Positions 1,516 to 46,029 of a stretch of 64,000 nucleotides of DNA are shown here, in pieces. Source of the DNA: a phage. The number at the start of each line of letters is the position of its first letter. Position 1 is the first letter of the stretch. The stretch lies in assembly GCA_038450185.1 (NCBI GenBank), contig GCA_038450185.1_4765.1; one strand, 5' to 3'. The notes beneath the pieces were generated by a model. The model made no database searches. It was not told where the DNA came from and was given only the letters and a program-made list of their open reading frames with translations. A program made the position numbers and the translations under genes.

Positions 1516-3567
1516 TTACATTTTAAATTTATCTGGCATTGCGTCTACAGATACCAGATCAGCGATAAGCTGACGTAGAGTTGCCTTATCTGCTTTCTTA
1601 CGTTCGGTTTTAGCTTCGGTAATAAAGCTGGAGAAAGACAGGTCAGAAGCAGGTTTAACAACACCTTCACGGATGAATGCATCACCGTCCGCGATCATCT
1701 CGCCAGATTCTTGTAATGCTGCCAGTTCATTTTTGTTCATAATATGTGCCTCAATGTAATAAGTTTCTTGTGAATCCGTCGATGCCGTAGCACGAGTTAC
1801 CGTATCAAAGGATAACACAACACCGCGAGGAAGTAAAATCTCGCATTCTTTGTAAGCAAATGCTTTGTTACCTACTGGCAATACAGGGATGTTTTCCGCG
1901 CCAGCAATGGAGAAAGCAACATTAGCGCCACCTTCACCGCGAGAGCCAGCCATAGAATCAACACCAGCAACGGCACTAGCCACGTTTGCATTCCAGCCGC
2001 CAAAAATGTTAGGTGCAAGGGAAGTGCTCACATAGTTTTTAAAGTAAAACGCTTTTTGCTTACGTGCAGTTTCCCACATTTGAGACCGGAAGTCCATACC
2101 ACGATACAGAATAGTACCCGGATCAAGTTTAACACCATAGTTAGAGAAGGCATTATCCAGTGCATCGCACATCTTGACCAATTCTTCTGGATCTGCGATA
2201 CCATCAAATTCTTCCAGCTTACGGTCGGTTAGGAAGTTGTTCATATTGATGTATGCTGCATCCGCATATTCGCTCAACACAAAACCTTCCGCACCTGGCA
2301 GATCAAGATCAATATCTGCCATCATTTCACCCATGTTGCTAGCAATTGCTTCAAACATACCGGAAGCAACATTACGTAGGGCATCGGTTTTAATCTGGGT
2401 GATATGACTACGCAGCATTTCAGCTTTTACATCTGCTGGCATAGACTGGTCTACTCGATCCATTGCCAGGGCGGTGATCTTGTTTTCGAATACTTCCTCG
2501 CTCATGATTTCTTTTAAGCGTTTGATTGATGCTGCGATAACTTCCGCAGACAACGGATCATATTGATCCTGAACTTTTACCAGTTCGCTTACTGCGTATT
2601 TTGCATCGGCTTCGCTTTCAAAAATAGTACGCATGAAACCATAGCGAGTGATAATATCACTTGTCCAGTCATTCAGAGAACGGGCGGTTGAACGTTCTAA
2701 GGCTTGACGGTCAATCAGAGTATTAAACTGTTTCTTAGGTTCGGCTTCGGTGATATCTTCTTCCGGTTTAAGATTAATTTTTTCTGGATGATTCACATAG
2801 TCGCTGTTATAGGTCGCTTGAGTTTTCAGCATTTCTTCTTTAGTCAAACGAGATTTAGCCGCTACGCGTTGTTCCGCTTCCGCGTTTCGTTCTTCTTCTG
2901 ACACAAGACTAGCCGCATACGCCTCATCTTTAGTCAGAGATTCACCAGTAGCCTTAGATACCCAGCGATCACCTAAATCACTTTCTACTTTAGTGAACAA
3001 GGATTCATCAAGTTTAATCCCTTTAATCTTATCAATCGCCATCCCGCGACGCTTGACAACAACTAAAGCGATCTTTTTGCTGGTCATTACTTCCTGCTGG
3101 AATACTTCAAACTTCGGTGTACGACGCACCAAACGCTCTATAACGCGCTTAACCAGTTCGGTCTTACCTTTCATGCGGGATACGTTAAAACGGAACATAA
3201 CAGCGTCTAATTGCGCTTTACGGGCTGTTTCCATAACCACATCAAAAGCACTTGACATAACTGCAATCGGGTTATCGCCTAGACCATTTTTAAGCTGTAC
3301 AATACGACCGCTTTTGTTCATTTCGCACAGTACAACATGTGCGGTCTTGTCACCCATACGAATGATTTTAGGTGTTTTGTTGGTGAAGTTACAAAGACGG
3401 ACAATCACATCTTTATCGCGTGTCTGTACTGCAAAAAGCTGTTTAGGATTCTGCTTAGGCTTTAAGCACTGTACCGGAGCAATACTGCCAAAGTTTTCTT
3501 CCTCTTCCGTCAACAGCCATTTCTCGAAAGATTCAATCATTAGATCGTCGATTTCTAAGTTAAACAT
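1516..3567 (-). CDS. alt: ADP-ribosyltransferase Alt (virion internal protein)
   Basis: 683 aa, close to the recalled T4 Alt length (682 aa); motifs ILYRGMDFRS, YVSTS, KECEILLPRG; position next to the ligase region as in T4. Confidence 0.7.
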   Translation of the reverse strand: MFNLEIDDLMIESFEKWLLTEEEENFGSIAPVQCLKPKQNPKQLFAVQTRDKDVIVRLCNFTNKTPKIIRMGDKTAHVVLCEMNKSGRIVQLKNGLGDNPIAVMSSAFDVVMETARKAQLDAVMFRFNVSRMKGKTELVKRVIERLVRRTPKFEVFQQEVMTSKKIALVVVKRRGMAIDKIKGIKLDESLFTKVESDLGDRWVSKATGESLTKDEAYAASLVSEEERNAEAEQRVAAKSRLTKEEMLKTQATYNSDYVNHPEKINLKPEEDITEAEPKKQFNTLIDRQALERSTARSLNDWTSDIITRYGFMRTIFESEADAKYAVSELVKVQDQYDPLSAEVIAASIKRLKEIMSEEVFENKITALAMDRVDQSMPADVKAEMLRSHITQIKTDALRNVASGMFEAIASNMGEMMADIDLDLPGAEGFVLSEYADAAYINMNNFLTDRKLEEFDGIADPEELVKMCDALDNAFSNYGVKLDPGTILYRGMDFRSQMWETARKQKAFYFKNYVSTSLAPNIFGGWNANVASAVAGVDSMAGSRGEGGANVAFSIAGAENIPVLPVGNKAFAYKECEILLPRGVVLSFDTVTRATASTDSQETYYIEAHIMNKNELAALQESGEMIADGDAFIREGVVKPASDLSFSSFITEAKTERKKADKATLRQLIADLVSVDAMPDKFKM

Positions 3568-3611: not shown

Positions 3612-3635
3612 ACGGGGCTTAACGCCCCCTTTTTA
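3612..3635 (-). terminator. hairpin terminator
   Basis: GGGGCTTAACGCCCC stem-loop with flanking T-run. Confidence 0.45.
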
Positions 3636-3884: not shown

Positions 3885-3913
3885 ATTATAGGGGATCACC
3901 GATCCCCTGTCAA
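3885..3913 (-). promoter_or_regulatory. sigma70-type early promoter, TTGACA-17-TATAAT, palindromic spacer
   Basis: -35 TTGACA and -10 TATAAT read on the minus strand; spacer GGGGATCACCGATCCCC. Confidence 0.6.
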
Positions 3914-3920
3914 CAACTTT

Positions 3921-4475
3921 TTAGTTATTTTTTAATTGTTCATCTTGCAATAATGCAATCACATGCTGGCGATGTTCTTCCGATTGAGGTACACCGAAAA
4001 AGTTTGTTTTGTAGAAATACTCTAATCGGTCTTCTCGTGTGCTCTCTTCCATCATGATCGCGGGTAGTCCGAGATTTCGGAAACGTCGCTTTTCTGCTGG
4101 CGTAAAATCACTGTAATACAACATAGAATCATCATTACAAGCAATGCTAAACTCATCCTTCATAAAGGAGAATATTGCGTTTAAACGCTGTTTACCGTCC
4201 ACGATTTCGATCTCATAGCGAGAGCCATCATCAATCTTAGCCATTGCGATAGCACCAACCGGAAAATCATTAATCAGGTTTTCGATAAACATACGTTTGT
4301 TTTCGGTGTCCCATACTAAAGGACGCTGATAATCTGGGTTCATGTTGATATAGCCATCTTCTAACCATGCTTCGTAAACAGAGATGACAAAGTTTTTAGT
4401 ATTGGTATAGTAACGGCGTTTAGGCGTTAAACGGTTCATGTTATAGTCTCCTGAATGGATCATCACGTAAATCAA
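3921..4475 (-). CDS. DUF262 (ParB-like, GmrS-type) domain protein
   Basis: Motifs PDYQRPLVW and IVDGKQRLNA typical of the DUF262 N-terminal domain of GmrSD-type enzymes; alternative ATG at about 4439 right after the upstream stop. Confidence 0.6.
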   Translation of the reverse strand: MIYVMIHSGDYNMNRLTPKRRYYTNTKNFVISVYEAWLEDGYINMNPDYQRPLVWDTENKRMFIENLINDFPVGAIAMAKIDDGSRYEIEIVDGKQRLNAIFSFMKDEFSIACNDDSMLYYSDFTPAEKRRFRNLGLPAIMMEESTREDRLEYFYKTNFFGVPQSEEHRQHVIALLQDEQLKNN

Positions 4476-4773
4476 TATCTTTTAAGAACTCATCCCATGA
4501 ATGGCGGATATTGTTCTTAATTCTCCAGATGAGCGCAGGGATTGAACGCTCTCCCATCTGGAAGTATGGATCATATGATCCGTATGCCCAATATGCTACT
4601 ACAATTCCACAATCAGAGCAATAGTATTCTATTTCACTTGCTGGCGACCAAAGTCCATCAATATGATCGGTGATCTTGCTTTCGATGTTATGGCTATGGC
4701 AATCAGGGCAACGGATGCAATGACCTTGTTTGTCGTAATTTGACGTTAGAGAATACTTAAACAATCTCATCAT
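4441..4773 (-). CDS. Cys/His-rich zinc-binding protein (110 aa)
   Basis: CxxC..CxH and CxxC clusters; translationally coupled to both neighbours. Confidence 0.45.
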   Translation of the reverse strand: MMRLFKYSLTSNYDKQGHCIRCPDCHSHNIESKITDHIDGLWSPASEIEYYCSDCGIVVAYWAYGSYDPYFQMGERSIPALIWRIKNNIRHSWDEFLKDIDLRDDPFRRL

Positions 4774-5486
4774 AGATCCTTATTGGCTTCAAATACTGCC
4801 TTTGCGAATCCTCGCGGGGTAAGCGACCTGATAGTCTTTGTTCTGGTTCCTTTCCCGCCTAGCTTAGAATGCTGTTTACTGTACCCTTTATTAATCTGCA
4901 AAGGTTTCTTTTCTGGCATTATAAAGCCTTGTCCGGTCCATAAGCAAGTCTTTTTTGGGTACATATCACGGGCGGCAATATACTCAGGAAACGTAGGATG
5001 CTTATCATCTTCCGGCAAATAACCGCCATATTCCCACGGATGGAACATATAATCAGGCTTACGCCACATGCTAGAGATAACGCTTACAGGATTCTCTATC
5101 ATGTAGGGAACTCCTAGCCATTCACCCAAATAAGCGGTTATTTTAGCTGCCCGTACATCATGAACTTGAATCAATGGTCCTTGTCCTCGTTTCTTTCGTT
5201 CAAAGTGCGCAGCGCCACTAACAGCTAAATTGGTGCACGGTGGGAATGCAAAGATAATATCCGGTTTCCCCCATTCAAGGTCCATTGCTCTTTCCAGCCA
5301 ATTCAAATCAATCCATGTGTTTACATAAGTAATGTTTGGATGTTCAAATCGGGTATTATACTTTTTGTATGTGCCGTGATCGCCATCGTCAGCATTAAAG
5401 CAGATCACCTTATGACCTTCTTTAGCCCATTCTAGCCCCATTATCCCCGATCCGTCAAAGTTGCAGAATATTAATTTTTGTTTCAT
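4770..5486 (-). CDS. compact C5-cytosine-methyltransferase-like protein (238 aa)
   Basis: Motif I-like FCNFDGSGIMG, motif IV-like IFAFPPCTNLAVSGA (Pro-Cys), motif VI-like ENPVSV, possible motif IX RSLTPRGFAKA; too short to hold a normal target recognition domain. Confidence 0.5.
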   Translation of the reverse strand: MKQKLIFCNFDGSGIMGLEWAKEGHKVICFNADDGDHGTYKKYNTRFEHPNITYVNTWIDLNWLERAMDLEWGKPDIIFAFPPCTNLAVSGAAHFERKKRGQGPLIQVHDVRAAKITAYLGEWLGVPYMIENPVSVISSMWRKPDYMFHPWEYGGYLPEDDKHPTFPEYIAARDMYPKKTCLWTGQGFIMPEKKPLQINKGYSKQHSKLGGKGTRTKTIRSLTPRGFAKAVFEANKDL

Positions 5487-5728
5487 ATACGCCCCTTTAA
5501 TCCAACACAGATTTTAGAAGGTTCTTTGCCGTGCCACATTAAGTAAAGTCCGTTAATGCGGCCTTGTTTTGTATATGATTCTTTTCTGATCTTCTTATAG
5601 TGTCGTGTTTCCTCAACTGATTGTTTAGAATACCAATCATAAAGGAAGAGGCACAAAGGCCAACCATTAGCGGCCTTAATGCAGTTATTAAGAAATTCCT
5701 TATTGCGTTTAATTAATTTTCTTTTCAC
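5483..5728 (-). CDS. hypothetical protein (81 aa), operon member
   Basis: 4-nt overlap with both neighbours. Confidence 0.45.
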   Translation of the reverse strand: MKRKLIKRNKEFLNNCIKAANGWPLCLFLYDWYSKQSVEETRHYKKIRKESYTKQGRINGLYLMWHGKEPSKICVGLKGRI

Positions 5729-5976
5729 GCTGCCCCCATTGGTTTGATAGTAACAGAATCTAAAAGACCTTTGTTAGCCAGTTCGCGGCAAGTTTTCAGA
5801 TCCGCAACTTCCCAGCCAGCCGCAATCAGGTTGTCAATGAGGCTGTTAGCAACTTCTTCGCTCATGAAAGAGCACTGTTTGCCGATGGTGTAGCGTACAC
5901 GCTGTAATTTCAGTTTACGGAAGCCTTTAACGTTCAGGTCTTTAGCGATTTTCTTTGCGGTTTCGATGTTAGCCAT
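5725..5976 (-). CDS. hypothetical protein (83 aa), first gene of operon
   Basis: ORF behind the promoter at about 6017-6045. Confidence 0.5.
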   Translation of the reverse strand: MANIETAKKIAKDLNVKGFRKLKLQRVRYTIGKQCSFMSEEVANSLIDNLIAAGWEVADLKTCRELANKGLLDSVTIKPMGAA

Positions 5977-6016: not shown

Positions 6017-6045
6017 ATTGTAGGGGAGTTATCCTCCCCTGTCAA
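6017..6045 (-). promoter_or_regulatory. sigma70-type early promoter, TTGACA-17-TACAAT
   Basis: Spacer GGGGAGGATAACTCCCC is an imperfect palindrome. Confidence 0.5.
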
Positions 6046-6260: not shown

Positions 6261-6290
6261 ATTATAGGGGATCGGTGATCCCCTTGTCAA
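6261..6290 (-). promoter_or_regulatory. sigma70-type early promoter, TTGACA / TATAAT
   Basis: Spacer palindrome GGGGATCGGTGATCCCC. Confidence 0.55.
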
Positions 6291-10003: not shown

Positions 10004-10033
10004 CATTATAGGGGATCACCGATCCCCTGTCAA
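10004..10033 (-). promoter_or_regulatory. sigma70-type early promoter with GGGGATC..GATCCCC spacer
   Basis: Near-identical to promoter at 3885..3913. Confidence 0.55.
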
Positions 10034-11142: not shown

Positions 11143-11171
11143 AGTATAGGGGATCGGTGATCCCCTGTCAA
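11143..11171 (-). promoter_or_regulatory. sigma70-type early promoter with GGGGATCGGTGATCCCC spacer
   Basis: -35 TTGACA, -10 TATACT. Confidence 0.5.
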
Positions 11172-21871: not shown

Positions 21872-21939
21872 AATAAAATCCTCACTTGTTTTTGATGGTT
21901 GTATTATAGCGGGGATTTCTCCCCGCGTCAACACTTATT

Positions 21940-46000: not shown

Positions 46001-46029
46001 ATTATAGGGGATCGCAGATCCCCTGTCAA
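46001..46029 (-). promoter_or_regulatory. sigma70-type early promoter with GGGGATCGCAGATCCCC spacer
   Basis: -35 TTGACA, -10 TATAAT. Confidence 0.55.

Follow-up and report, generated by a model that had tools for sequence, protein, structure and literature searches.

The 64,000-nucleotide stretch of phage DNA analysed here (the window; GenBank assembly GCA_038450185.1, contig GCA_038450185.1_4765.1) carries a cassette of five consecutive minus-strand genes, g1 to g5, in which g3 encodes a compact C5-cytosine DNA methyltransferase and g5 a standalone DUF262 protein (Table 1). More than 50 Krischvirus genomes, including RB49, Sf20, KFS-EC, TB34 and SAP, match the 2.9 kb around the cassette at 97–98.5% identity; Krischvirus phages are RB49-like, T4-like myoviruses of the family Straboviridae. 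A preliminary description of this DNA had listed five minus-strand open reading frames (ORFs) overlapping start to stop behind one promoter and had proposed that they form a novel coupled module. All five ORFs were found where it had placed them, and given that their products all matched PHROG families in profile searches (weakest E 7e-34) and are conserved across 57 Krischvirus genomes, we regard the five genes as real. In the deposited annotations the last gene is a "DUF262 domain protein" in one record and g1, g2 and g4 are hypothetical, and an NCBIfam search returned no match for four of the five proteins.

Table 1 Genes and promoter/stem-loop elements of the five-gene cassette, in window coordinates
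Feature	Position	Strand	Description
Early PeSL promoter/stem-loop	6017..6045	-	TTGACA-GGGGAG-GATAA-CTCCCC-TACAAT; TTGACA-17-TACAAT, 11/12 match
g1	5725..5976	-	83 aa; phrog_14908, E 5e-59
g2	5483..5728	-	81 aa; GTG start; phrog_7065, E 5e-38
g3	4770..5486	-	238 aa; compact Dcm-like C5-cytosine DNA methyltransferase; phrog_757
g4	4441..4770	-	109 aa; putative Cys4 zinc ribbon (CxxCxxC...CxxC); phrog_2993, E 7e-34
g5	3921..4439	-	172 aa; standalone DUF262 (ParB/Srx fold)
Downstream PeSL	3885..3913	-	TTGACA-GGGGATC-GGT-GATCCCC-TATAAT, 12/12 match; starts 8 nt past the DUF262 stop codon

The start-to-stop overlaps, read directly from the sequence, are present at three of the four junctions: g1 and g2 share 4 nt (GTGA, with a GTG start), g2 and g3 meet at ATGA, and g3 and g4 at ATGATGA with an overlap of 1 or 4 nt, whereas g4 and g5 abut (TAAcATG) without a 35-nt overlap once g5 starts at the ATG at 4439. 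Such overlaps are frequent among nearby genes and in RB43 as well, and thus represent a genome-wide trait rather than the sign of a functional link.

We compared 80 viral loci carrying the methyltransferase gene with 10-kb flanks, two of them from Krischvirus, by tblastn and with the DUF262 profile. Homologues of g1, g2, g4 and the DUF262 gene accompanied the methyltransferase in both Krischvirus loci and in none of the 78 others, and among 55 loci with a short DUF262 gene, the methyltransferase and the other cassette genes were found within 10 kb only in the two from Krischvirus (0/53 elsewhere). In RB43, 9g and ST64B the cassette homologues lie among unrelated genes, and when the neighbours of the DUF262 gene were compared over 23 lineages, each gene family was shared by two at most. 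The idea of a novel coupled module therefore fails outside the genus, and the distribution of homologues indicates that the cassette is a genus-specific mosaic of unrelated accessory genes and not a conserved module.

The surroundings of the cassette offer a route to such a mosaic. Upstream of g1 stands the single promoter that had been placed at about 6017-6045, with a hairpin in its spacer (−19.4 kcal/mol, z −5.8), and this promoter is predicted to drive the five genes. The element past g5 likewise carries a hairpin (−14.1 kcal/mol), a probable attenuator for transcripts of the five-gene unit, while the promoter of this element may drive the next small gene; terminator function has been reported for the stem-loops of PeSL (early promoter/stem-loop) cassettes (PMC2839356). 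The window contains 25 TTGACA-N17-TAYAAT sites, all on the minus strand, compared with 1.5 expected by chance, a subset of which hold a near-identical GGGGATC...GATCCCC hairpin in the spacer; PeSL-type sites lie at 3885-3913, 6017-6045, 6261-6290, 10005-10033, 11143-11171, 21903-21931, 46001-46029 and elsewhere. Those with spacer hairpins are PeSL cassettes of RB49-type phages, and the region displays the flanking sigma-70-like promoters, G/C-tract stem-loop, AT-rich upstream tract and insertions and deletions among relatives that characterise a PeSL hyperplastic region. In the hyperplastic regions of RB49 and phi1, recombination between PeSL cassettes shuffles accessory ORFs (Arbiol et al. 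2010, PMC2839356), and because a PeSL-rich region shuffles genes in this way, unrelated genes would come to stand side by side.

The g3 product matched the "DNA methyltransferase" family phrog_757 over residues 1–237 (E 6.4e-90). The C5-methyltransferase motifs for which it had been singled out, FCNFDGSGIMG (motif I), IFAFPPCTNLAVSGA (motif IV) and ENPVSV (motif VI), are all present, and in an alignment of 30 family sequences F10, G12, S13 and G14 of motif I, P82-P83-C84-T85 (motif IV P83-C84) and E131-N132-P133 of motif VI are invariant. Its AlphaFold model is confident (pLDDT 87), adopts the C5-methyltransferase catalytic-domain fold with the DNMT3 catalytic domain as best structural match. 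K178 and K179 are the predicted DNA-contact lysines. The remark that the protein is too short for a normal target recognition domain (TRD) also holds, as alignment and model both lack a full-size TRD and the 238 residues compare with about 330 for the smallest canonical enzymes. By contrast, the compact enzyme is not the oddity it had seemed. Relatives number 7,299 in a large protein database and 1,141 among the representatives of clusters made at 50% identity, and the family occurs in 1,523 phage records, including Drexlerviridae (KarlJaspers), Dhillonvirus (KarlBarth), Vequintavirus (FFH2), Jersey and many ~49-kb Klebsiella phages, and since nearly all its phage proteins measure 210–260 aa, the compact form is the family norm.

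A member of this family has been characterised. Phage K42, a relative of KarlJaspers, carries a 711-bp dcm gene that was found mutated in phages escaping retron Ec86, and expressing this gene alone in E. coli raised 5-methylcytosine (5mC) in multicopy single-stranded DNA (msDNA), as measured by liquid chromatography–mass spectrometry, an effect abolished by mutating C82, E128, K175 and K176 (bioRxiv 10.1101/2023.08.16.553469). The KarlJaspers Dcm (bas06_0055, 236 aa) has these residues at exactly the positions tested in K42 and is 55% identical to g3 over the full length (E = 3e-91), and all four are conserved in g3 as C84, E131, K178 and K179. Given the 55% identity, the retention of the tested residues and a KarlJaspers genome without g1, g2, g4 and g5, we conclude that g3 belongs to a known, experimentally supported and self-sufficient family. 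The preliminary description had allowed that close homologues of the operon might already be characterised, which proved true of the methyltransferase, whose orthologue works alone, but not of the operon as a whole.

These results bear on an alternative in which g3, g4 and g5 form a module specific to the Krischvirus lineage, the TRD-poor g3 being targeted in trans by g4 and/or g5. Split C5-cytosine methyltransferases exist, M.AquI and M.EcoHK31I among them, and could serve as its model, and ParB-like domains often accompany phage methyltransferases. The tight coupling of g3, g4 and g5, the presence of each in 57 Krischvirus records with no less than 90% identity and the missing full-size TRD would all fit. 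However, the K42 orthologue is active when expressed alone and comes from a phage without g4 or g5, enzymes throughout the compact family share this length and lack a partner, linkage is absent at 78/78 and 53/53 loci outside the genus, and co-occurrence within one genus at 97–99% identity amounts to vertical inheritance, leaving such a module very improbable.

The g5 product matched Pfam GmrSD_N (DUF262, PF03235) above threshold (6e-20), and the DUF262 signatures reported for a 184-aa ORF, DYQRPLVW and DGKQRL, are intact (Y37-Q38-R39..V42-W43 and D81-G82-K83-Q84-R85) and accompanied by a family-specific C-terminal motif, N146-F-x-G-V-P-Q-S-x-E-H156. Its model shows a confident ParB/Srx fold. 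The likely start is the ATG at 4439, 1 nt after the g4 stop with AGGAG upstream, which is annotated in TB34 and W115 and gives an N-terminus, MNRL, that aligns with homologues, whereas the TTG at 4475 is the start of the longest ORF only. As the preliminary description had it, the nuclease half is missing: g5 ends at residue 172 with neither a DUF1524 or His-Me finger half nor a further Pfam match, and because the nuclease domain is absent g5 is no GmrSD enzyme. Nor is it a truncated GmrSD pseudogene, which we ruled out because being short is the norm across a large family whose members share an invariant C-terminal motif of their own. A profile search found 2,656 relatives; among the 120 matches listed, all carry PF03235 only, and the closest are proteins of 160–190 aa from large phages. 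Literature on the function of phage-encoded or standalone DUF262 proteins yielded host defence systems only. We infer that g5 may be a switch or enzyme that binds or hydrolyses nucleoside triphosphates (NTPs), acting alone and early.

Taking these observations together, we favour, with a probability of about 0.72, a PeSL-bounded early cassette of independent accessory proteins, among them a self-sufficient methyltransferase, g3, and an autonomous DUF262 protein, g5. Soon after infection, host RNA polymerase would transcribe the cassette, starting at the sigma-70-type promoter (6045-6017), and the tight gene spacing would couple translation, as is usual for T4-like early regions. The five products would be independent accessory proteins gathered by modular shuffling rather than subunits of one machine. 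With S-adenosylmethionine (SAM) and Cys84, g3 would place 5mC on the unmodified-cytosine DNA of the phage at a rare motif, for which CCWGG is the candidate by analogy with the K42 orthologue, an enzyme outside the GYSxQ variable-loop subclass to which g3 belongs. The likely benefit would be protection against cognate restriction enzymes, and the likely cost that methylation may trigger sensors of the retron Ec86/Eco1 type. As for g5, an autonomous ParB/Srx-fold protein with intact nucleotide-binding signatures, it would most likely serve host takeover or counter-defence.

Several points weigh against this explanation. Whereas the profile search confirmed the DUF262 assignment of the preliminary description, its DNA_methylase assignment stayed sub-threshold, PF00145 matching g3 with 13.9 bits against a 22-bit cut-off and over residues 10–101 only. 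Searches of NCBIfam and of Protein Data Bank (PDB) sequences with g3 found no match and the family profile found nothing useful among PDB chains, so that the methyltransferase assignment rests on the PHROG match, the motifs, the fold and the orthologue. Directly after PPCT, residue 86 is N in g3 and D in at least 90% of relatives, and the variable loop is of the GYSxQ subclass compared with DNPGW in the K42/KarlJaspers type. CCWGG occurs 22 times in the window against 65 expected, an observed-to-expected ratio (O/E) of 0.34, whereas KarlJaspers, with an O/E of 1.04, does not avoid it. The loop subclass and N86 suggest that the specificity or activity of g3 may differ from that of the K42 orthologue, on analogy with which 5mC formation by g3 is proposed. 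Further, high-performance liquid chromatography (HPLC) and mass spectrometry revealed no modified nucleosides in the DNA of TB34 (PMC13390438), and g3 could accordingly be inactive on phage DNA. Beyond the methyltransferase, the role proposed for g5 is itself tentative, and the lack of conserved linkage is compatible with an interaction of g3, g4 and g5 confined to this lineage.

The motif counts beyond CCWGG place its avoidance in context. CCSGG is rarer still in the window (5 versus 30 expected, O/E 0.16) and equally so in KarlJaspers (O/E 0.17), GGCC is low (0.43) and GATC is not depleted (1.03). In DNA flanking the methyltransferase genes, the CCWGG O/E was 1.07 at DNPGW-type and 0.89 at GYSxQ-type loci, a weak trend confounded by lineage. 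For the K42 enzyme, specificity for CCWGG was itself concluded from E. coli Dcm and msDNA mutagenesis rather than from a methylome (bioRxiv 10.1101/2023.08.16.553469), and literature on methylomes of the compact family gave nothing relevant.

The same observations underlie the alternative that the Krischvirus g3 leaves phage DNA unmethylated, being catalytically silent or serving another function such as the binding of DNA or SAM: TB34 DNA lacks detected modified nucleosides, CCWGG is strongly avoided although the window encodes g3, and D86N sits beside the catalytic PPCT. The TB34 result argues against frequent or non-specific methylation, but it is compatible with 5mC at rare sites because CCWGG sites would involve only about 0.17% of C, an amount that could escape HPLC. 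Given also that g3 keeps every invariant catalytic and SAM-binding residue and is conserved at 97–99% protein identity across 57 genomes, we consider a silent g3 rather improbable.

Turning to g5, its best PADLOC matches were the N-terminal halves of NsnA of Menshen (3.6e-20) and PD-T4-2_A (5e-12), and it shares its fold with BrxU and SspE at 12–19% identity to the solved defence enzymes. It might thus be an anti-defence protein directed against DUF262-sensor enzymes (GmrSD/BrxU, SspE, Menshen NsnA, DUF262-Schlafen, PD-T4-2), either by acting as a decoy or dominant-negative subunit or by tying up the nucleotide or DNA that these enzymes bind. Early expression, as predicted from the promoter, would suit this role, as would an autonomous gene that lacks a partner and occurs in many lytic and temperate phages. 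However, the low identity makes generic heterodimerisation unlikely, and the conservation of catalytic-type motifs fits an enzyme or switch better than it does an inert decoy. Moreover, an even sample of 40 phage records from the whole DUF262 ranking included RB43, Klebsiella, Enterobacter and Cronobacter phages of 174–180 kb and Krischvirus but none of the T-even genera Tequatrovirus and Mosigvirus, the classic GmrSD targets, and the literature on phage or standalone DUF262 proteins lent no support. We regard an anti-defence role directed at these DUF262-sensor enzymes as rather unlikely.

A broader and still more doubtful proposal takes the whole standalone ~170-aa DUF262 family (about 2,650 members, with YQR..VW, DGKQR and NFxGVPQSxEH invariant) as new phage NTP-dependent ParB/Srx switches or enzymes. 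Its members would counter host defences that themselves use this domain (GmrSD/BrxU, SspE, Menshen, DUF262-Schlafen) or perform an early nucleotide-dependent step, and the Krischvirus pairing with a 5mC writer would, just as tentatively, reflect a need to shield 5mC-marked DNA from modification-dependent nucleases.

A further question is whether the cassette feeds the cytosine hypermodification of SAP, with g3 making a 5mC precursor and g5 reading or protecting modified DNA. SAP DNA contains glucosyl-methyl-dC, whereas TB34, 99.96% identical, is unmodified, and no pathway genes are known in Krischvirus (PMC13390438); g3 is the sole C5-cytosine-directed enzyme identified in the cassette region. 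Over 9 kb around the cassette, however, SAP and TB34 have identical g1–g5 coding sequences and differ in five 1-nt homopolymer indels and in the PeSL that directly follows the DUF262 gene, of which SAP has a tandem duplication of 79 bp (L149 3601-3679 versus L001 3600). As this duplication is the only substantive difference, we rejected the cassette as the cause of the SAP/TB34 contrast. A site-specific, post-replicative methyltransferase cannot yield the "full complement" of modified cytosine reported for SAP, whose describers found no glucosyltransferase genes and drew no leads from a comparison of SAP/TB34 single-nucleotide polymorphisms (PMC13390438), and a contribution of the cassette to hypermodification is hardly credible.

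Among the methyltransferase and DUF262 loci examined, g1 was found in Krischvirus only; in PADLOC it weakly resembles (E 2.6e-5) the C-terminal part, at positions 722–785, of the 938-position model for the defence-associated reverse transcriptase RT_UG35 (DRT). g2 is absent from 8 of the 57 Krischvirus records (JSE, pEJ01 and phiS type) and is thus a dispensable member of the cassette. A metagenomic relative (locus L009, 9774-10004) has no g2, and its GTG-started methyltransferase gene directly adjoins a g1-like ORF whose N-terminus differs. The zinc-ribbon label given to g4 fared unevenly, in that a Cys4 zinc ribbon is plausible from its cysteine pattern but every Pfam zinc-ribbon match is sub-threshold. 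The closest relatives of g4 outside Krischvirus occur in Nonagvirus 9g, JenK1 and JenP1/2 and in Proteus and Klebsiella siphoviruses; the 9g homologue (L004, 2450-2770) is annotated "ZPR1 zinc finger protein" and has no methyltransferase or DUF262 gene near it.

Two observations concern the wider window. Downstream of the cassette, the gene at 1516-3567 encodes an Alt-like RNA polymerase ADP-ribosyltransferase (PF03496, 2.4e-9) with its own terminator-like hairpin upstream at 3614-3628. Between ~32000 and 42000, the GC skew, negative before, becomes positive within about 10 kb while the GC content climbs to 0.46, which suggests a block of plus-strand genes in an otherwise minus-strand window.

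What appeared to be a new DNA-modification module thus reads as a mosaic of independent accessory genes, in which the g3 family is already known as one that writes 5mC and triggers retron Ec86. Membership of this family predicts that Krischvirus phages are sensed by retrons of the Ec86/Eco1 type and have 5mC at rare sites in their DNA, which HPLC of nucleosides may overlook. Given a genome that avoids CCWGG, g3 draws attention to the target sequence of the GYSxQ subclass, and g5 to the function of the widespread standalone phage DUF262 family.

Compared with canonical C5-cytosine methyltransferases (M.HhaI, M.HaeIII and E. coli Dcm; PF00145), g3 is about 90 residues shorter, lacks a full-size TRD and a partner restriction enzyme and scores below the Pfam gathering threshold. 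It resembles the K42/KarlJaspers Dcm (phrog_757) in length class (236 versus 238 aa), in motifs I, IV and VI and in having the DNMT3 catalytic domain as best structural match, but lies in the early hyperplastic region of a T4-like myovirus, whereas the siphovirus genes compared adjoin helicase or replication genes, and in a phage genome that, unlike KarlJaspers, avoids CCWGG. With the DUF262–DUF1524 enzymes GmrSD, BrxU and SspE, g5 has in common the N-terminal ParB/Srx fold, YQRxxxW and DGxQR aligning exactly; however, it stops at 172 aa without the DUF1524/His-Me nuclease, has K for the first Q of DGQQR, gains the C-terminal NFxGVPQSxEH and, unlike these defence enzymes, is phage-encoded and predicted to be expressed early. 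Finally, the PeSL ORFan cassettes of RB49 and phi1 (PMC2839356) likewise combine a strong sigma-70-like early promoter, an AT-rich upstream tract and a G/C-tract stem-loop, with insertions, deletions and duplications between close relatives falling at the cassettes, and whereas single ORFans were stressed there, the present unit comprises five genes over 2.1 kb.

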